Positions 1-6,699 of a stretch of 6,699 nucleotides of DNA are shown one piece after another. This DNA is from a virus (lineage: Duplodnaviria; Heunggongvirae; Uroviricota; Caudoviricetes). The notes under the pieces are model-generated. The model was not told the origin of the DNA and did no database searches. It saw only the letters and a list, made by a program, of their open reading frames with translations. Both the position numbers and the translations under genes were made by a program. The DNA lies in the IMG/VR virus record IMGVR_UViG_2529292716_000007; one strand, 5' to 3'. Every line of letters begins with the position of its first letter. Positions within the stretch are counted from its first letter, which is position 1.

Positions 1-457
1 TTAAATGTCTTTCCATTCCCTCCCTCGTCCGTCACGGTATTTATCCGTCATGCTGGATGAACGATGTCCAAGGAGCGCCTGAGTGAAATCACCGCCTTTT
101 TCTGCTGAGTGCAGGCGACCGGATAAACTTCGGATTTCATGAAATGGCGGTGGGTCACCTTCCCATTTCAATCCGGATGTGTCTCGGGCAATCCTGAACT
201 GTGCTGCGATTGTCCTGGCTGTCTTCCCTCCGAGTAACTTTTCGTTTTTACCGTTTATTTTTTTCAAGTTATCCAGTACATCGGCAAGTGTTAAATTCAA
301 TCTGGAAATCGTGGTGGGGAGAGAAATGCGAATTTTTGCCCCTGTTTTTTGTTGTTCCACGTATAGCCTGCCATCTCTTATATCCTCCCATCTCATAGCC
401 GCCAGATCTCCTTCGCGCTGTCCTGTTACCAGTGCAAGATCCATGCAAAGGCCGAAC
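1..457 (-). pseudogene. int: Lambda-family tyrosine integrase, C-terminal catalytic fragment; N-terminal part replaced by IS600
   Basis: Minus-strand ORF ends with the stop at 1-3 and a C-terminus ...HEIRSLSGRLH...LLGHRSSSMTDKYRDGRGREWKDI, closely resembling the lambda Int C-terminus (R/H boxes and catalytic Tyr in the LLGH...Y motif). The reading frame runs into the IS600 left end at 458, so the first codons of the track ORF (MSVKLRLPQ) are IS-derived and most of the N-terminus is absent. Confidence 0.8.
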
Positions 458-521
458 TGAGGTAGCCTGAGTTTAACGGACACTCCTTCCTGAAATAGAA
501 TGGCATCAGAAGGAGCTAATA

Positions 522-824
522 ATGAGCAGAAAAACCCAACGTTACTCTAAAGAGTTCAAAGCCGAAGCTGTCAGAACGGTTCCTGAAAATCAACTTTCGA
601 TCAGTGAAGGCGCTTCCCGATTATCTCTTCCTGAAGGCACTTTAGGACAATGGGTTACCGCCGCCAGAAAAGGGCTCGGTACTCCTGGTTCCCGCACGGT
701 GGCTGAACTGGAATCTGAAATTCTGCAACTGCGTAAGGCGTTAAATGAAGCTCGCCTTGAGCGAGATATATTAAAAAAAGCAACAGCGTATTTTGCACAG
801 GAGTCGCTGAAAAATACGCGTTAA
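522..824 (+). CDS. IS600 OrfA, IS3-family transposase N-terminal HTH/leucine-zipper subunit
   Basis: 100-aa ORF MSRKTQRYSKEFKAEAVR... with an HTH and a C-terminal leucine-zipper-like segment (LQLRKALNEARLERDILKKATAYF), the conserved IS3-family OrfA architecture. An A-rich SD-like stretch (AGAAGGAG) lies upstream at about 508-515. Confidence 0.85.
   Translation: MSRKTQRYSKEFKAEAVRTVPENQLSISEGASRLSLPEGTLGQWVTAARKGLGTPGSRTVAELESEILQLRKALNEARLERDILKKATAYFAQESLKNTR
773..780 (+). other. Putative -1 programmed ribosomal frameshift site (A AAA AAA G) joining orfA and orfB
   Basis: A7G run at 773-780 sits in the orfA 0-frame (TTA AAA AAA GCA). A -1 slip puts the ribosome into the orfB frame (start positions congruent to 2 mod 3). 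Position near the 3' end of orfA matches IS3-family frameshift windows. Confidence 0.6.
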
Positions 825-859
825 TCGAACAATGGCGACAACAATTTCCCATTGAAGCG

Positions 860-1678
860 ATGTGTCAGGTATTTGGTGTATCCAGGAGCGGTTATTACAA
901 CTGGGTACAGCATGAACCCTCAGACAGAAAACAAAGTGATGAGCGGCTAAAACTGGAGATTAAGGTGGCACATATCCGCACTCGCGAAACATATGGAACC
1001 CGGCGGCTCCAGACGGAGCTGGCAGAGAATGGCATCATCGTTGGTCGTGACCGACTGGCACGTCTTCGTAAGGAGCTAAGGCTACGCTGTAAGCAGAAAC
1101 GCAAGTTCAGAGCGACTACGAACTCGAACCACAATCTGCCAGTTGCGCCAAATCTGCTGAACCAGACGTTCGCTCCTACAGCACCAAATCAGGTCTGGGT
1201 GGCGGACCTGACGTATGTTGCCACACAGGAGGGATGGTTGTACCTCGCTGGCATCAAAGATGTTTATACGTGCGAAATTGTCGGCTACGCCATGGGAGAG
1301 CGCATGACAAAAGAGCTGACAGGTAAAGCCCTGTTTATGGCGCTCAGGAGCCAGCGCCCACCTGCCGGGCTAATCCACCACTCTGATCGAGGTTCACAGT
1401 ACTGCGCATACGATTACCGGGTCATACAGGAGCAGTCTGGTCTGAAAACATCAATGTCGCGTAAAGGTAACTGTTACGACAACGCTCCGATGGAAAGCTT
1501 CTGGGGAACGCTGAAAAATGAGAGCCTGAGCCACTATCGTTTTAATAACCGGGATGAAGCCATCTCAGTAATACGGGAATACATTGAGATTTTCTACAAT
1601 CGTCAGCGTCGTCACTCTCGTCTGGGGAATATCTCCCCGGCAGCCTTCAGGGAAAAATATCATCAGATGGCTGCTTAA
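860..1678 (+). CDS. IS600 OrfB, DDE transposase catalytic domain, normally made as an OrfAB fusion by -1 frameshifting
   Basis: 272-aa ORF in the -1 frame relative to orfA. It carries the DDE triad context (WVADLTY, HHSDRGSQY, ESFWGTLKNE) typical of IS3-family transposases. The frame is open upstream of the first ATG back towards the slippery site, so the biological product probably spans 522-1678 with a shift near 773-780. Confidence 0.85.
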   Translation: MCQVFGVSRSGYYNWVQHEPSDRKQSDERLKLEIKVAHIRTRETYGTRRLQTELAENGIIVGRDRLARLRKELRLRCKQKRKFRATTNSNHNLPVAPNLLNQTFAPTAPNQVWVADLTYVATQEGWLYLAGIKDVYTCEIVGYAMGERMTKELTGKALFMALRSQRPPAGLIHHSDRGSQYCAYDYRVIQEQSGLKTSMSRKGNCYDNAPMESFWGTLKNESLSHYRFNNRDEAISVIREYIEIFYNRQRRHSRLGNISPAAFREKYHQMAA

Positions 1679-1721
1679 AAAAAGAACAAATGGTAGTGTC
1701 CGCTATTGCCAGTACACCTCA

Positions 1722-2070
1722 ATTGCTCTGCGGCTTCGCTCAGAGCTGGCGTATGTTCCCGGCCTACTGATTCACACAGGTAATCAACGAAACCGGACAC
1801 CAGTTTTCGTTCGCGAGGCGTGATCGCCCCACCGACCGGAGTCCAGTAATCGAAACCCAGTTGCAGGAGTTTGAAAAAACGCTTGTGGAATGCGTAGTTA
1901 CACACACGCTTAAAGTCTGCGTGTATCCACTCACCTATTTTGATTTGATGCAGAAAATCGCAACTCTCCGGCGTCGCCGGGAGAAGTAATCCGGAAGAGG
2001 TTTGTTTGACCAGTTGTATATGTGCCATCGGCTTTCTCCGGTGGCACGGTGTTACACAGCAGGAGTTCAA
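1722..2070 (-). pseudogene. Hypothetical phage protein, 3' end truncated by the IS600 insertion
   Basis: Minus ORF whose last ~15 codons (…RCTGNSGHYHLFFF) lie inside the IS600 right end, so the native C-terminus is missing. Two candidate starts: ATG at 2070 overlapping the upstream stop as ATGA, or ATG at 2028 preceded by GGAGA at about 6 nt. No family recognised. Confidence 0.5.
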
Positions 2071-2354
2071 TCCTGCTCAAGATTGTAGATGAGTTTATTC
2101 TTCAGCAAAAGCAGAAAACCAGCCTTAAAACCAATCTCTTTCAAAACCCGTAATGATGTGACAAATTCGTCCTCACGCAAAATAAAACCGTCCGTCAGAA
2201 GTCCATTACAAAAATAAAATAACACAGCACCGCTCTTCCTTTGTTGAGATTGCAAACATCTAATGCGGCAATGGCTGACAATCGCTCCATTCTCAACGCG
2301 CACAGCATAGAGGCCATTTTCACTAAAAATTTCACGCAATTCTTCGATTTTCAT
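2067..2354 (-). CDS. Hypothetical protein, 95 aa
   Basis: ORF MKIEELREIFSENGLYAVRVENG... with an SD-like GGAAGGA about 10 nt upstream of the ATG at 2354. Its stop overlaps the next start (ATGA at 2067-2070), suggesting translational coupling. Function not recognised. Confidence 0.5.
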   Translation of the reverse strand: MKIEELREIFSENGLYAVRVENGAIVSHCRIRCLQSQQRKSGAVLFYFCNGLLTDGFILREDEFVTSLRVLKEIGFKAGFLLLLKNKLIYNLEQD

Positions 2355-2470
2355 CTTCAGAATCCTTCCAGATAAATAGCTCTCCCCTGTTCGGGGTCCA
2401 TCCCTCTTCTCCCTGCGCGCTACTTAAGTGAGTCGATTCTATCTGCGAAGGTGCGCGAATCAAATTCACC

Positions 2471-2528
2471 GGAAATAAACAACAAAAAACCCGCCGAAAC
2501 GCTGAGAGATCACAGCGATGGGCGGGTT
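2471..2528 (-). terminator. Rho-independent terminator at the 3' end of the hok transcript
   Basis: On the minus strand: GC-rich stem AACCCGCC...GGCGGGTT (plus 2488-2495 / 2521-2528) with a nested stem CGCTG/CAGCG, immediately followed by a U-tract (TTTTTTGTTGTTTATTT, plus 2471-2487). Confidence 0.6.
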
Positions 2529-2603
2529 AAGTGCGGGTGCGTTGAGGATGCCTGACACATCAGAGGTGGGCGGGGATGGGATCAGCTCCCCGCCCGGTCA
2601 CTC

Positions 2604-2759
2604 TTACTTCCTGGATTCGTAGTCTACGAAGACAGCGACCTCCGTCTGGCCGGTTCGGATTCGTACCTCACAGAGGTCTTTCCTCGTTACCAGTGCCGTC
2701 ACTATGACGGTTAAACAGATGACGATCAGGGCGATTAACATCGCCTTTTGCTGCTTCAT
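2604..2759 (-). CDS. hok: Hok/Gef-family type I toxin (small membrane-depolarising peptide)
   Basis: 51-aa product MKQQKAMLIALIVICLTVIVTALVTRKDLCEVRIRTGQTEVAVFVDYESRK: single transmembrane helix plus the conserved RKDLCEVRIRTGQTEVA Hok/Gef periplasmic motif, recalled as near-identical to chromosomal Hok proteins (HokD/RelF, HokC/Gef). AAGGAG SD lies 9 nt upstream of the ATG. Confidence 0.9.
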   Translation of the reverse strand: MKQQKAMLIALIVICLTVIVTALVTRKDLCEVRIRTGQTEVAVFVDYESRK

Positions 2760-2816
2760 AGCCTGCTTCTCCTTGCCTTTCGGCATGTAAGAGGCTAACC
2801 TACATGTGCAAAGCAT
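2604..2816 (-). CDS. mok: Mok-like leader ORF, in-frame N-terminal extension of hok (MLCTCRLASYMPKGKEKQA-Hok)
   Basis: 70-aa ORF from the track; the ML.TCR...K.KEK.AMKQ pattern resembles chromosomal MokC as I recall it. GAGG lies about 9 nt upstream. Assigning a Mok role is by analogy only. Confidence 0.5.
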   Translation of the reverse strand: MLCTCRLASYMPKGKEKQAMKQQKAMLIALIVICLTVIVTALVTRKDLCEVRIRTGQTEVAVFVDYESRK

Positions 2817-2935
2817 GAAATTGGCCTCAGATTAATGTTAAGCGTCTTGCCGGACGCGTAATGTTAACTGGGGCTTTTCTCTATCTGCCTTTTGGTGTTC
2901 ATGCCTGAAGCAGATAGCCTCAAGCACCCGCAGTC

Positions 2936-2965
2936 ATTCTACTTACCTCGCCAATATGAAATCAA
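2936..2965 (-). promoter_or_regulatory. Candidate sigma-70 promoter of the hok/mok mRNA
   Basis: Minus strand reads TTGATT (plus 2960-2965), an 18-nt spacer, then TAGAAT (plus 2936-2941). The predicted start near 2929 puts the 5' element TGCGGGTGCTTGAGG at the transcript start, consistent with the 5'/3' complementary pair noted in the findings. Confidence 0.45.
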
Positions 2966-2986
2966 TCAGAAAGGTGCCCCATAAAA

Positions 2987-3673
2987 TCACTCCTTCTCTT
3001 CTTTACCGTAGTGGAGTTGACCAATTTTGATAAGAGGGCGTCCCTGAGATTTGCGGTGTAGATTGGTATCGCGCAGAGAATACACACAGCCACAATATTC
3101 CTGCTGATAGAATTTTTCGCGCTTGCTGATTTCAATCATACGGGACGAGCCGCCCTGCTTGCGCCAGTTATAATCCCAGTACACCATGCCCGGATAATGC
3201 GCGACGGCTCGCCGCCCACAGTCGTTAACCTGCTGCATATTTTTCCAGCGTGAAATGCCCAGTGAACTGCTGATCACACTGAAACCATTTTCAGCGGCGT
3301 ACAGCGCTGTCCGCTCAAAACGCATGTCAAAACACATGGTGCAACGGATCCCTCGTTCGGGCTCCCATTCCATTCCTTTGGCTCGTTCAAACCAGTTGTC
3401 TGTGTCGTAATCAGCATCAATAAACGGCACGCCGTGTTGTTCAGCAAAGCGAATATTCTCATCCTTACGAATTAAATACTCTTTCTGAGGATGAATGTTC
3501 GGGTTGTAGAAAAAGATGGTGTAGTCGATTCCCGAGGCCTGAAGCGCCTCCATCACCTCACCGGAACATGGAGCACAGCAAGAGTGCAGTAGTAGTTTGT
3601 TTGCCCCGTTTGGGAGCTCCAATTTGGGCCGTTTGAAATCAGCAACTGTCATAAATATGTTTATTGGGGTCAT
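2987..3673 (-). CDS. DUF208/QueH-like (epoxyqueuosine reductase family) putative Fe-S protein, 228 aa
   Basis: ORF with an N-terminal [14 protein letters not shown] motif that I recall as the cluster-binding signature of the QueH/DUF208 family, plus further Cys pairs (CTMCFD, CGCVY). Assignment is from motif memory only. No convincing SD before either candidate start (3673 or 3652). Confidence 0.55.
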
Positions 3674-3792
3674 AAAAATATCAAAGAGTGTAGCATTAGA
3701 ACGGGGCTATCGGAAACAGATGTGTGACTGCTCCCCGCCCTTTCGGGTGGTCTCCTGATGATTTGAGGGTGCAGAAATCCCTCCGGTTAAGG

Positions 3793-3821
3793 ATTAAATT
3801 TTTAACAGTGCTAAATTTAAT
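3793..3821. promoter_or_regulatory. 9-bp perfect inverted repeat ATTAAATTT-N11-AAATTTAAT; candidate operator/protein-binding site
   Basis: Seen directly: 3793-3801 is the reverse complement of 3813-3821, separated by 11 bp, in an AT-rich intergenic stretch at the stop of the 3821-4234 ORF and upstream of the QueH-like gene. Confidence 0.3.
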
Positions 3822-4234
3822 TATTCAGTTCTGGATTTTGTCGCCCTGCGTATCCGCGCTTTCGCGTTACGCTCAATCTGTATCAGCTTTTCTATATTTC
3901 TCCGCCTTTCCTGTTCCTCCTGGCGCAATAGCCTTACATCATCTGCCAGTCTGGTTTCTCTTTTTGCCACAGAGAGCATCCAGTCAAACGGCTCCACAAC
4001 CGCACCGCAGATTTTACAGCGGACCTGACGCTCTTTTTCGTCAACCCGTACAGAGGCGTGATGGCAATATGGTCTTTCCGATGGCTCATAAAGAAAATTA
4101 ACCTGATTACGAGGGTCATCCTCTTTTACCGGAAATAAAACGATATTGCTTAACTCATCTTCTGGTTTTATTTCCATGCTCCTCTCCTTTGATGCGAATG
4201 CCAGCGGTAATTGAAGCCTGATAGCTAATTTCAT
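3821..4234 (-). CDS. Hypothetical small protein with putative zinc-ribbon (C-H-H...C-x2-C) and basic coiled-coil C-terminus
   Basis: ORF with an AGGAGG SD 11 nt upstream of the ATG at 4234, which directly abuts the stop of the upstream ORF. An alternative start at 4177 (MEIKPEDE...) has AAGGAG 6 nt upstream. Contains YCHHASVRVDEKERQVRCKICG followed by a charged heptad-like tail (LLRQEEQERRRNIEKLIQIERNAKARIRR). Family not recognised. Confidence 0.55.
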   Translation of the reverse strand: MKLAIRLQLPLAFASKERSMEIKPEDELSNIVLFPVKEDDPRNQVNFLYEPSERPYCHHASVRVDEKERQVRCKICGAVVEPFDWMLSVAKRETRLADDVRLLRQEEQERRRNIEKLIQIERNAKARIRRATKSRTE

Positions 4235-4657
4235 TCACAGTATCGCCTCCTGAAAATTACCCTGATAGAAAGCCAGTACACGCTGCATAGCTTCGCTCTT
4301 CCGGCACTCGCGACAGATTATATTCAGGCGCCTGTCGTAGCGGCGTATTTCTCCGTCAGGTAATGACCAGATAAGGTCCGGATCAACAACAACCGGTTTC
4401 CTCACCTTTACTCTCGAGAGTTTTTTGCGGGCGCTTTGCCAGTCCTTGCGAGCCTGTTCAGACGGGAATAAGCCGTAGCCAGAATTATATACATCACCAC
4501 TTGCGACCAGTTCTATGCATAAGCGACCGACAGACGCACGACTGATACCTGTTTCATCTGACAACTGCCGAATCGTGACCCGACCGTCCTGATGCACGAG
4601 TTCCACAATTCGCGTCTTCAGTTCTTCCCGCTGTTCGGGAGTAAAAGGTTTCGCCAT
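4235..4657 (-). CDS. Putative winged-helix DNA-binding protein, 140 aa (possibly YdaW-like)
   Basis: ORF with a strong SD (CAGGAGG) 5 nt upstream of the ATG at 4657, 14 nt after the DnaC-like stop. The N-terminal region (RVTIRQLSDETGISRASVGRLCIELVASGDV) looks like an HTH/winged-helix. Position immediately downstream of the DnaC-like gene matches ydaW in the Rac gene order; homology not verified. Confidence 0.55.
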   Translation of the reverse strand: MAKPFTPEQREELKTRIVELVHQDGRVTIRQLSDETGISRASVGRLCIELVASGDVYNSGYGLFPSEQARKDWQSARKKLSRVKVRKPVVVDPDLIWSLPDGEIRRYDRRLNIICRECRKSEAMQRVLAFYQGNFQEAIL

Positions 4658-4671
4658 AAATCCTCCTGAAA

Positions 4672-5418
4672 CTACTTAACAACCCTCGAATGGCTAACAT
4701 TCGGACGCCAGCTCTCCCAGTTAAAATTCACCCAGCGCCCGCCGTTCATGACCATGCGATCCATCACCCGCTCGCCGAGCAATGTTTTCATCACCTCATA
4801 GTTCAGGTTTGTCAGCATCCCCACGCTGCGCATCGACGCTGTCCGGCGATCAACAATCTGGTGCAGCACCACCTGCTCGTTTTTCGTCTCGCGCTGAATG
4901 CCAATTTCATCAAGAACCAGCAGATCCACTTCGCACAGCTCCCGCAAAAATTTTTCGCCTGACTGCCCGTCGTCATAGCTGGCGTGCAGGGCGCTCATAA
5001 CATCAGCCACGGTAACCACAATCACTGTCTGACCGTCTTTCAGCAGGCGATTCCCGATAGCTGCCGCTAAGTGATTCTTCCCGGTACCAGGTTTTCCGCT
5101 GAACGCAAAATTTGTACACCCGGTCATCAGTTCATCGGCGATGGATTTCGCCTGGCTTAACGCGTATCGCTGGCCGTCGTTCTGCACCTGGTAATTCGCA
5201 AACGAGCATTTACGGTGCAACGGCTGGATGCCTGAGCGATTCAGAATTTTTTCCACCCGCAACTGGCGATTCAGGCGGTTGATCTCCTCGCTACGTTTCT
5301 GGCCTTCAGCAAGTTGCCACTCGCGCCACTCCGCTACCGTTCTGAATGGGGCGGTTACATGTGGCGGGGTCAGTCGGCGGATGCGTTCCAGAACGCCGCC
5401 TGTCGCAATATTTTTCAT
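4672..5418 (-). CDS. ydaV: DnaC-like AAA+ helicase loader, prophage replication protein (YdaV-like)
   Basis: 248-aa ORF with Walker A (FSGKPGTGKNHLAAAIG) and Walker B (DLLVLDEIG), the DnaC/IstB-like ATPase fold. Length and N-terminus MKNIATG... match my recollection of Rac prophage YdaV. It follows the initiator gene with a 6-nt gap, as in phage O/P-type modules. Confidence 0.8.
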   Translation of the reverse strand: MKNIATGGVLERIRRLTPPHVTAPFRTVAEWREWQLAEGQKRSEEINRLNRQLRVEKILNRSGIQPLHRKCSFANYQVQNDGQRYALSQAKSIADELMTGCTNFAFSGKPGTGKNHLAAAIGNRLLKDGQTVIVVTVADVMSALHASYDDGQSGEKFLRELCEVDLLVLDEIGIQRETKNEQVVLHQIVDRRTASMRSVGMLTNLNYEVMKTLLGERVMDRMVMNGGRWVNFNWESWRPNVSHSRVVK

Positions 5419-5772
5419 GGTCCGTTACCCCCTGAAGCCTGGCGGGATCGCACTGTCCGGCAACGAGACGGTGTTAACCTGTCGGAGCAACGTCTCAGGC
5501 CGAACACCTTTCGGCGCGAACAGGCCCTGGTATTCATTGGCGATGCTGTGTCGAATCACCTGCTCAGGTGTAAAACCCTGCTGACGGAATTTTTCCAGTT
5601 CCCGTATCGCCCCGTTAGCGCCCTGCTCCGTTCGAATCGGTTTTCGCAATGCCTGTCTGAACCGGACCCACTCATGCCAGAGTGTTTCCGGCAACCAATC
5701 GGGCAGCTCAATAGCCTCCGGCTCGAATTTTTTAGACGCTCGTTTTTGGCGAGGGGGAGATCAGTATTTAGA

Positions 5773-5817
5773 TCTTCCTCTTCCTCTTCCTCTTCCTCTT
5801 CCTCTTCCTCTTCCTCT
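5773..5817. repeat. Hexanucleotide microsatellite (TCTTCC)7.5, i.e. (GAAGAG)n on the coding strand, encoding a poly-Glu tract
   Basis: Seen directly: 45 bp of perfect TCTTCC repeats. In the minus frame that is open across it, it reads as 14 consecutive Glu; the other two minus frames read (RG)n and (KR)n. Confidence 0.95.
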
Positions 5818-5960
5818 GGTAACGCTTTTTGATCCGTTTGTGTAACGCTGGCAGCGTTACCTTTTCGTTTCAGTTCGCGTATTTTTGTTACTCGCTCGTT
5901 TGTAACCGCCCGTTTTTTTTAGAGCTTTTTCCGTTATGACGTTCAAAGTTAGGTAGAGAA
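5818..5960. repeat. Iteron-like repeat cluster (GTAAC core, including a perfect 9-bp palindrome) adjacent to a T-rich tract; candidate phage origin embedded in the initiator gene
   Basis: GTAACGC at 5819 and 5842; palindrome GTAACGCTG-G-CAGCGTTAC at 5842-5860; TTTTGTTAC at 5882-5890; TTTGTAACCGCC at 5899-5910; then T8 and an AT-rich stretch at 5911-5960. Lambdoid origins lie inside the initiator gene as iterons plus an AT-rich region. Confidence 0.35.
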
Positions 5961-6085
5961 AGCCCTCCGTCATTTTCGACCAGCCATCCAACCTGAATTA
6001 ACGCATCAGCAAAACCAGACATAAAAGTGATGCGATCTATTGCACTTTTTGTAACGCCGCGAGCGTTACAATCTGCATTACCGTC

Positions 6086-6699
6086 TGGATTTGCCCCTAT
6101 ATTTCCAGACATCTGTTATCACTTAACCCATTACAAGCCCGCTGCCGCAGATATTCCCGTGGCGAGCGATAACCCAGCGCACTATGCGGATGCCATTCGT
6201 TATAATGCTCGAACGCCTCTGCAAGGTTCTTTGCTGCCGTTAACCCGTCTGGTTTGGGCATGATACTGATGTAGTCACGCTTTATCGTTTTCACGAAGCT
6301 CTCTGCTATTCCGTTACTCTCCGGACTCCGCACCGCCGTGTTCTTCGGTTCAAGTCCCAACATCCGGGCGAACTGGCGTGTTTCATTAGCCCGGTAGCAT
6401 GAACCATTATCCGTCAGCCACTCCACTGGAGACGACGGAAGATCGTTGCCGAAGCGGCGTTCCACCGCTCCCAGCATGACGTCCTGTACTGTTTCACTGT
6501 TGAAGCCGCCGGTAGTCACCGCCCAGTGCAGTGCCTCACGATCACAGCAGTCCAGCGCGAACGTGACACGCAGTCTCTCTCCGTTATCACAGCAGAACTC
6601 GAACCCGTCAGAGCACCATCGCTGATTGCTTTCTTTCACGGCCACTCTGCCTGTATGTGCCCGTTTCGATGGCGGTACAGCAGGTTTTCGCTCAAGCAA
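6086..6699 (-). mobile_element. IS2 (IS3 family), right-end portion; element continues beyond the window
   Basis: Plus strand from 6086 reads TGGATTTGCCCCTATATTTCCAGACATCTGTTATCACTTAACCC, the reverse complement of the IS2 right terminus (...GATGTCTGGAAATATAGGGGCAAATCCA) as I recall it, followed by the InsD coding region. Confidence 0.9.
6097..6699 (-). CDS. insD: IS2 transposase InsD (OrfB), 5'-partial at the window edge
   Basis: ORF product ...[31 protein letters not shown]...[31 protein letters not shown] matches the IS2 InsD C-terminal region from memory; stop at 6097-6099. Confidence 0.9.

Follow-up and report, generated by a model that had tools for sequence, protein, structure and literature searches.

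A junction formed by IS600 in a Shigella sonnei prophage most likely marks an intra-prophage inversion followed by a deletion

In Shigella, homologous recombination between copies of an insertion sequence (IS) has been put forward as the source of IS-flanked chromosomal inversions (Seferbekova et al. 2021, PMC8072062), and IS-flanked inversions ascribed to homologous recombination are also documented in S. sonnei (S. sonnei reference-strain resource 2026, PMC12795559). One of the listed inversions, of lineage 3, is flanked by IS3-family transposases, and IS600 occurs in its gene list. Tn3, Mu, IS1 and IS6/IS26-type elements invert DNA by replicative intramolecular transposition. The window, by which the whole stretch of 6699 nucleotides analysed here is meant, is DNA from Shigella sonnei and belongs to a degraded lambdoid prophage adjoining modC and ybhA; very probably it captures one junction of an inversion within this prophage, generated by IS600 and followed by a deletion.

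The features of the window are listed in Table 1. As claimed in the original prediction, IS600 cuts both genes that flank it, and both lie on the same strand, leaving the last 151 codons and the stop codon of the 373-aa integrase and the N-terminal 102 codons of the DUF1367-family protein. The left flank is 99.8% identical to positions 6291-6746 of the E. coli FDAARGOS_944 locus (L003), which are within its annotated integrase gene, and this flank encodes the same residues as the C-terminal end of the full-length S. sonnei integrase (P0009). The Pfam match PF00589, recorded on the 160-aa integrase ORF, corresponds to the catalytic domain, which is retained; the arm-binding and core-binding domains are gone, and the N-terminal part (PF09003/PF22022) is found on a separate N-terminal integrase fragment in strains of the 53G type, described below. 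The integrase copy of the window is a gene fragment, without the full domain set of a lambdoid tyrosine integrase. The DUF1367 fragment is also shorter than the full-length protein of ~199 aa and still matches PF07105; the uninterrupted site in the intact reference reads ...tgtattcagatATTgctctgcgg..., and the exact 117-aa product of the chimeric ORF is on record in 531 contigs, with sources naming S. sonnei. The prophage meets the chromosome ~80-90 bp before position 1, and the attachment site that was to be sought there is outside the window.

Table 1. Coordinates of the features of the window
Feature	Position	Strand	Details
3' fragment of the prophage tyrosine integrase gene	1..457	-	codons 223-373 of 373; stop codon at 1-3
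Left flanking triplet AAC	455..457		one copy of the 3-bp duplication from the original IS600 insertion into the integrase gene
Complete IS600 (IS3 family)	458..1721	+	1264 bp; imperfect terminal repeats TGAGGT...CGGACAC
IS600 orfA	522-824		100 aa; helix-turn-helix, Pfam HTH_Tnp_1 (PF01527)
IS600 orfB	860-1678		272 aa; DDE (rve) domain, Pfam PF00665/PF13683
Chimeric ORF, DUF1367 read into the IS	1675-2028		117 aa; 102 DUF1367 codons and 15 IS-derived codons
Right flanking triplet ATT	1722..1724		presumed target triplet, in the DUF1367 gene, for the joining of a second IS600 end
5' fragment of the DUF1367-family phage gene	1722..2028	-	codons 1-102 of 199
In-window part of the inverted central prophage block	1722..6075	-	99.2% identity to L003 19730-15382, reversed; gene order DUF1367', Rem, HokD, QueH, hypothetical, DUF977, YdaV, broken replication-initiator-like gene
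Rem	2067-2354	-	in inverted block
HokD	2604-2816	-	in inverted block
QueH	2987-3673	-	in inverted block
Hypothetical gene	3821-4234	-	in inverted block
DUF977	4235-4657	-	in inverted block
YdaV replication ATPase	4672-5418	-	in inverted block
End of an IS2 copy (presumed), cut by the window edge	6076..6699	-	breaks the replication-initiator-like gene

At its right end the window departs from L001 and from L004 at ~6076-6077, into TGGATTTGCCCCTATATTTCC, and from here to the edge it is presumably IS2, an assignment that also draws on the end sequence of IS2. The match that reaches position 6699 overlies the annotation 'IS3-like element IS2 family transposase', and 614 bases of this IS end recur elsewhere in L005 and L012. 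This IS end adds another break to the block and is separate from the IS600 finding; the ORF that is chimeric between IS2 and the replication gene (5888-6112) has a match in a single 1.8-kb contig, which does not reach past the right end of the window in a way that shows further context.

The element between the two gene fragments is a complete IS600, having the expected length (1264 bp for an expected ~1264), imperfect inverted repeats, a TG start and a CA end (it starts with TGAGGTAGCC and ends with CACCTCA), and the overlapping-frame arrangement of orfA and orfB, with Pfam domains recorded on both products. It is 99.4% identical over 1264 bp to the copy in E. coli FDAARGOS_943 (L002), which is annotated as 'IS3-like element IS600 family transposase', and it does not differ from the copies that L004, L007 and L008 carry at this junction (100% identity). 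The match to IS-free references stops exactly at 457 and resumes exactly at 1722, so the IS600 boundaries are exact, and the claim that a matching target-site duplication is missing stands: the left triplet is AAC, the right one is ATT, and no 3-bp duplication is present. In related loci, six independent simple IS600 insertions have perfect 3-bp duplications (ACC, AAC, CAA, CAT, CCG and TAC), and the left IS600 junction of the window itself does show the AAC duplication in the 53G-type strains. The absence of a duplication in the window, when it is present in these controls and in the 53G-type strains, therefore points to a rearrangement after the insertion and does not speak against the identity of the element as IS600. 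The AAC/ATT junction is also not an assembly artefact, since it recurs in many S. sonnei assemblies that are independent of one another, some with contigs above 4 Mb.

An intact form of the prophage, adjoining ybhA/modC, is present in E. coli FDAARGOS_944 and FDAARGOS_943; the integrase is found in only these two of 5426 E. coli genomes, and the same two are the best match to the remainder of the window. The nucleotide identity of this prophage to the two IS600 flanks is 99.0-99.8%, and its gene set is the same as that of the window, but neither gene carries IS600 and the late genes are present, unlike in the window type. In FDAARGOS_944 the integrase gene (L003 6290-7411, minus strand) and the DUF1367 gene (19424-20023, plus strand) are both within one prophage, with the two flanks 12,984 bp apart and on opposite strands, which shows that they are not naturally adjacent. 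Positions 2-457 of the window map forward onto L003 6291-6746, whereas positions 1722-6086 map in reverse onto 19730-15382, and because this join is head-to-head, a deletion is excluded as the source of the window junction. The original prediction had described the DUF1367 gene as unrelated to the integrase: it is indeed a separate gene, but it comes from the same prophage, and the rearrangement is a local, intra-prophage inversion. The remark that the integrase is transcribed in the same direction as the replication genes, unlike in lambda, is also borne out, as the integrase tail, the DUF1367 fragment and the replication genes further to the right are all on the minus strand in the window, whereas in the intact E. 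coli prophage the integrase is transcribed divergently from the replication genes, as in lambda.

The S. sonnei genomes show two further structural states of this prophage. In the genomes having the arrangement of the window (L004, L005 and L012), the block corresponding to L003 13671-19730, with the immunity region (DUF1391, repressor) at one end and the first half of DUF1367 at the other, is inverted with respect to both outer flanks when compared with the unrearranged reference (13671-19730 maps as 'plus', 1-6746 and 21499-22241 map as 'minus'). The outer flanks themselves have kept their mutual order and orientation; one consists of the mod genes and the integrase tail, the other of the holin/late region (21499-22241). 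In the genomes of the 53G type (L022/L033, L014, L023 and L013) the prophage is colinear with its E. coli reference and the DUF1367 gene is intact; here IS600 is found at the identical integrase site, in the same orientation and at the same chromosomal locus, as a simple insertion with an AAC/AAC duplication (S. sonnei 53G and other putative lineage 2 strains; accessions HE616528, CP179990 and UGZF01000005). The left junction, …atgcaaaggccgAAC, is the same as that of the window, but on the right come AAC and the remaining part of the integrase gene (AAC-IS600-AACcattcgttctgg in L013, L014, L022 and L023), instead of ATT followed by DUF1367. Two internal junctions, between the left end of IS600z and 13671 and between the right end of IS911 and 21499, are base-for-base identical in the two types, which implies that both derive from one prophage copy.

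The strain lineages used here are putative, being assigned from chromosome lengths that match those of published strains. In L039 (putative lineage 1) the integrase is intact, in 53G, 830292 and L023 (putative lineage 2) the simple insertion into the integrase gene is present in an otherwise colinear prophage, and L005, which matches strain 03_0142 (putative lineage 3), has the arrangement of the window. This order of states (intact, AAC/AAC, window type) fits the sequence of events proposed below. The junction looks lineage-associated, being absent in the putative lineage 1 and 2 strains examined and present in the putative lineage 3 strain, and it could serve as a small structural marker.

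The proposed history begins with the insertion of IS600 into the integrase gene, generating the AAC duplication, a state that persists in the putative lineage 2 strains; this left half of the precursor (AAC/AAC) is seen in four loci. Subsequently, a second IS600 end would have been joined to ATT in the DUF1367 gene, 13 kb away and in the opposite orientation, the likeliest route being an ordinary second insertion. Homologous recombination between the two inverted IS600 copies would then flip the intervening segment, and the expected product, in which IS600 and the first half of DUF1367 follow the integrase tail and the replication genes are reversed, is the order observed in the window. Finally, a deletion anchored at the left end of the nearby IS911 would have removed the rest of the flipped segment, with loss of the integrase head, xis, gam, recE, Rha, the reciprocal IS600, the second half of DUF1367, YbcO and a Q-like gene. 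In the colinear state a long distance separates the pieces that are missing from the window type (L003 6747-13670 and 19731-21124). The left end of IS911 is the exact boundary of the deletion; it abuts nt 706 of IS600z in the window type but 21124 in the other types. The missing pieces become contiguous, around the predicted reciprocal IS600, only after the inversion, which is why a second, IS911-anchored deletion most likely removed them. The suggestion that the junction reflects a deletion or an inversion rather than a simple insertion is in agreement with the comparison of intact and intermediate loci, from which an inversion and then a deletion can be traced.

The comparison with other prophages and IS600 copies, as originally proposed, provides the intact references and the six control duplications, but not the reciprocal junction. 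This junction (…cagatATT-IS600-AACcattcg…) was not found in any collection searched, and the same holds for the precursor of the right half, IS600 inserted simply into DUF1367 with ATT on both sides. Chimeric 160-nt queries for both forms gave no site covering both halves in the 5426 complete E. coli genomes, which is a weak negative, as this set consists of records filed as E. coli only, of which two carry this integrase. Exact 27-mers of the reciprocal junction are absent from the species-representative genomes and the JGI metagenomes, but this negative carries no weight, as the window's own junction is absent from both collections too. Fragments with the C-terminal half of DUF1367 in S. sonnei, retrieved by a protein search with this half and inspected by fragment cluster, were considered as the reciprocal piece and rejected, since they read through the break site and have paralogue-specific substitutions, and thus belong to other prophages. 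In the window type, the IS911-bounded deletion occupies the place where the reciprocal junction would be expected. As the reciprocal and ATT/ATT forms were not found, the second insertion and the recombination step are deduced from one junction and from the orientation of the block.

It is conceivable, but unlikely, that the inversion took place in one step, by intramolecular transposition in which the integrase-borne IS600 attacked ATT in the DUF1367 gene, inverting the segment and making a second, inverted copy, without a separate insertion or homologous recombination. This route predicts exactly the junction AAC-IS600-ATT with one event fewer, and on sequence alone it looks the same as second insertion plus recombination, which leaves the same junctions; the lack, among the genomes searched, of any with IS600 simply inserted at ATT/ATT in DUF1367 is also in its favour, as is a different inversion of the same block in a putative lineage 1 strain, where an IS600 end abuts nt 1101 of IS911. 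However, IS3-family elements transpose by a copy-out/paste-in route via a circular intermediate, and replicative inversions are not its normal outcome. Also, nt 126 is C in the junction IS of all window-type genomes and T in the integrase-borne copy of every 53G-type genome and of L030, which may fit a hybrid or a different copy somewhat better than the same copy; this is only a hint, because both bases also occur at this position in one and the same insertion (the ACC/ACC copy). The two different inversions of the block, in strains of putative lineages 1 and 3, both have an IS600 end at their junction and are the basis for a speculative and quite improbable reading in which IS600 may make local inversions in one step, and flipping of this block of immunity, replication, hok and queH genes is possibly recurrent, and possibly selected, in S. 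sonnei.

It is very improbable that the junction joins two different prophages or distant loci through IS600, by a large rearrangement or translocation. Several DUF1367 paralogues do exist in other S. sonnei prophages, the identical integrase occurs in some strains in a second chromosomal context (yaiW-ddlA-phoA), and the short-read contigs L006 and L010 link the same DUF1367-IS600 end to replication genes of another prophage; these contigs, which have only part of IS600 and may be chimeric assemblies, have been set aside. This explanation is rejected on the basis of the orientation data and the shared internal junctions, as the two ends of the same prophage, with order and orientation unchanged, border the inverted block left and right, and its internal IS junctions are identical to those of the prophage that 53G carries, in colinear form, at this mod locus. 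A simple deletion of the interval between integrase and DUF1367, by recombination of IS600 copies in direct orientation, has a probability close to negligible. An event of this kind is known at the locus, as in L030 the integrase tail is joined through IS600 to another IS600 copy with loss of the region from the integrase head to recE, but at the window junction a deletion would leave DUF1367 with its C-terminal half, oriented as in the reference, whereas the N-terminal half is found, reversed, and the orientation data refute this explanation. An inversion followed by a deletion, both within one prophage, remains by far the most probable origin of the window.

Together, the inversion and the deletion remove the integrase head, the excisionase, the recombination genes and the late-gene activator, and the remnant would thereby be locked in place; it is predicted to be unable to excise or to make late proteins. 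The repressor, replication, hok and queH genes survive in it. The case also shows that IS copies without target duplications are best taken as recombination scars.

Inverting transposition of the kind known for Tn3, Mu, IS1 and IS6/IS26-type elements would be expected to produce this junction pattern, with two inverted IS copies each having half of two different flanking triplets; however, IS600 belongs to the IS3 family, for which such an inverting pathway is not established. With the documented IS-flanked inversions of Shigella, this case shares the IS at the breakpoint, a flip that apparently follows lineage, and pseudogenisation. It differs from these in being small, with ~13 kb flipped and ~6 kb of that retained, and in lying wholly within one prophage; it is below the 7-kb cut-off of the survey and missing from its table, and one of its breakpoints has since been deleted. 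The rearrangement is a textbook IS-driven event in Shigella, and it is one more case in which IS elements dismantle a prophage.

The element between the integrase and DUF1367 fragments encodes orfA (100 aa) and orfB (272 aa) and is identified as IS600 by its length, ends, open reading frames, domains and sequence identity, which is 99.4% with the annotated IS600 copy in E. coli FDAARGOS_943 and 100% with the equivalently placed copies of several other genomes. Its edges are set independently by the homology with the IS-free reference, which stops at 457 on the left and resumes at 1722 on the right. With these exact edges the flanking triplets differ, and the absence of a target-site duplication, as claimed in the original prediction, is borne out. 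As a control, the flanks were read for all full IS600 copies within the fetched loci, where six independent simple insertions each have a perfect 3-bp duplication (ACC, AAC, CAA, CAT, CCG and TAC). The 3-bp rule is therefore valid in this material, and the IS600 of the window is a real exception; the duplication is its sole missing defining feature, and precursor strains do have it at this left junction.

Features of the window discussed here, with positions in the whole stretch
Feature	Position	Strand	Description
Integrase 3' fragment	1-457	minus	last 151 codons and stop of a 373-aa tyrosine integrase
Left flanking triplet	455-457		AAC
Complete IS600	458-1721		1264 bp; first bases TGAGGTAGCC, last bases CACCTCA
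Right flanking triplet	1722-1724		ATT
DUF1367 5' fragment	1722-2028	minus	first 102 codons of a 199-aa protein
(TCTTCC)7.5 array	5773-5817		perfect hexanucleotide array inside the broken initiator-like gene
IS2 end	6076-6699		TGGATTTGCCCCTATATTTCC…, cut by the window edge; interrupts a replication-initiator-like gene

The break point of the integrase is at the W222/F223 codons, such that the catalytic domain is kept and the arm-binding and core-binding domains are gone. The DUF1367 fragment reads on into IS600, generating a 117-aa chimeric open reading frame; this exact product is on record in 531 contigs and the 160-aa integrase-tail reading frame in 711 contigs, the sources being named Shigella sonnei in both cases.

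This integrase is present in just two of 5426 complete E. coli genomes, FDAARGOS_943 and FDAARGOS_944, which are also the two best matches for 1722-6086. The FDAARGOS_944 locus (L003) is an intact lambdoid prophage adjoining ybhA and modC, with a first group of genes on the minus strand (in order, integrase, excisionase, gam, recE, Rha and repressor), a second group on the plus strand (cro, ydaT, an initiator-like gene, ydaV, DUF977, queH, hokD, rem, DUF1367, a ybcO-like gene and a Q-like DUF1133 gene) and a last group of tRNAs, lysis genes and terminase. Integrase and DUF1367 thus belong to one prophage, and the view that the second truncated gene is unrelated to the first does not hold. The break points, L003 6746 and 19730, are 12,984 bp apart, in opposite-strand genes. 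The attachment site, suggested to be just left of position 1, is corrected to a place outside the window, roughly 80-90 bp to the left; the reference homology ends roughly 80-90 bp beyond the integrase stop (…GGCATTTGCTTCAT; L003 6209), and this end marks the prophage/chromosome boundary. Directly outside this prophage end, about 750 bp, covering most of ybhA (L003 5325-6073), are absent from all S. sonnei loci examined; the remaining DNA is cleanly joined (12244/12245 in the window-type locus L004), and no IS is present there.

When compared with L003, 2-457 of the window is in forward orientation and 1722-6086 is reversed, and the integrase and DUF1367 are joined head-to-head, uniting the proximal sides of both genes. 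Such a join arises solely by inversion, and the event is therefore an inversion. A deletion alone would pair the integrase tail with the distal half of DUF1367 and is rejected, as the orientation contradicts it. Block 13671-19730 of window-type genomes runs opposite to both outer flanks, which keep their mutual order and orientation; a reversed block between unmoved flanks is the signature of a local inversion. The proposal of an IS600-mediated deletion or inversion instead of a simple insertion is supported by this block and by the head-to-head orientation.

The states of the locus were compared by fetching 10 kb on either side in many genomes. In the 53G type (53G HE616528, its draft assembly, NCTC UGZF01000005 and CP179990), there is a simple IS600 insertion at the identical integrase position with an AAC/AAC duplication, followed by the integrase head, xis, gam and so on; these genomes have an intact DUF1367 and show colinearity with the E. 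coli reference across the whole prophage. In the window type (CP022457, CP019689, CP022459, CP102341, CBDDMI010000001 and others), the integrase tail leads via AAC, IS600 and ATT to the reversed block, which runs from L003 19730 down to 13671. This block is followed by a partial IS600 consisting of nt 1-706, by an IS911-like element and, in unchanged orientation, by the holin and lysozyme region of L003 (from 21499 onward). A third state is seen in CP032523.1 (L030 1-2600), where integrase tail, AAC and IS600 are directly joined to a second IS600 starting at nt 98, the integrase head through recE is deleted and DUF1367 stays intact. Some S. sonnei strains have an intact integrase. At two internal junctions, the 53G and window types do not differ by a single base: one joins 13671 to the left end of the IS600 copy that is partial in the window type, and the other joins 21499 to the right end of IS911. 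The two types therefore go back to one prophage copy at one locus, and these common junctions rule out that different prophages were joined.

Other rearrangements are also observed. In two short-read contigs (L006, CXIN01000012, and L010, CXFC01000008), the same DUF1367-ATT-IS600 end is present with a partial IS600, next to which lie replication genes from another prophage that is Rac-like; the contigs may reflect additional joins mediated by IS600 or may be chimeric assemblies. The full-length S. sonnei integrase P0009 of loci L039-L042 (e.g. CP180280.1) ends in 151 residues that match the window fragment without a difference. It adjoins yaiW-yaiY-ddlA-phoA and not ybhA/modC; integration at a second site or a rearrangement on a larger scale would account for this. 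The strain matching lineage 1 (L039 1-6900) likewise has the central prophage block in inverted orientation to the integrase, with different break points (…21124, IS911 nt 1-1101, full IS600, L003 13169 downward); the block was rearranged independently in this strain. At the right end of the window, other genomes with the same IS600 junction have, in place of IS2, an IS600 that lies 39 bp further on and is flanked by an ACC/ACC duplication. The IS2 junction is rare, the chimeric reading frame across it being on record in one 1.8-kb contig only. The alignment with S. sonnei loci that are identical elsewhere is interrupted at 5793-5797, indicating that the TCTTCC copy number varies among strains.

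Chromosome lengths were matched with the strain table of a recent S. sonnei resource. By length only, CP180280 (4,916,714 bp, integrase intact) matches a lineage 1 strain, CP179990 (4,924,717 bp) and 53G (4,988,504 bp), both with the AAC/AAC simple insertion, match lineage 2, and CBDDMI010000001 (4,824,935 bp), with the window arrangement, matches strain 03_0142 of lineage 3. The order insertion, inversion, deletion fits these length matches.

IS3-family elements transpose by a copy-out/paste-in mechanism, and a second insertion followed by recombination suits this movement. In this favoured route, a second IS600 would insert in inverted orientation at ATT in DUF1367, and homologous recombination between the two copies would then invert the segment. 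Less probably, a one-step intramolecular transposition caused the inversion; this would leave identical junctions, such that sequence does not separate the two routes. At IS600 nt 126 (window 583), the junction copy has C and the integrase-borne copy of all 53G-type and CP032523 genomes has T, which is weakly compatible with a hybrid IS600; this position also varies within one other insertion. Homologous recombination between IS copies, as in the favoured route, is the accepted cause of IS-flanked inversions in Shigella (PMC8072062, PMC12795559).

The predicted reciprocal product is a second IS600 between …cagatATT and AACcattcg…. This ATT-IS600-AAC junction is not found with chimeric queries against the 5426 complete E. 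coli genomes or in a protein search with the C-terminal half of DUF1367; 27-mer scans of species-representative genomes and metagenomes are uninformative, the window's own junction being absent there too. Absent from the window type are L003 6747-13670 and 19731-21124, which the colinear prophage has at widely separated places; the inversion would bring them together on the two sides of the reciprocal IS600. The whole missing stretch is replaced by one join, of the IS911 left end against nt 706 of the partial IS600, and in 53G and the lineage 1-matching strain the same IS911 end adjoins 21124. A single IS911-anchored deletion after the inversion would account for all missing sequence, and by this mapping the reciprocal junction would be absent because its surroundings were removed. 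The two types have left IS911 ends that are identical except at one base (TGAAGTGG versus TGAAGTAG): nt 7 (L004 about 2280) is G at the rearranged junction and A at the ancestral junction. This difference hints that IS911 recombined with another copy of itself and did not delete adjacent DNA by transposition. The single-base differences in IS600 and IS911 at the rearranged junctions are compatible with hybrid IS copies generated by recombination.

The 13-kb inversion is absent from the published S. sonnei structural-variant table, which covers only variants of >7 kb that are conserved within lineages (PMC12795559). Erosion of Shigella genomes by IS-mediated inversions and deletions is well described; the event is of this class and involves no new principle.
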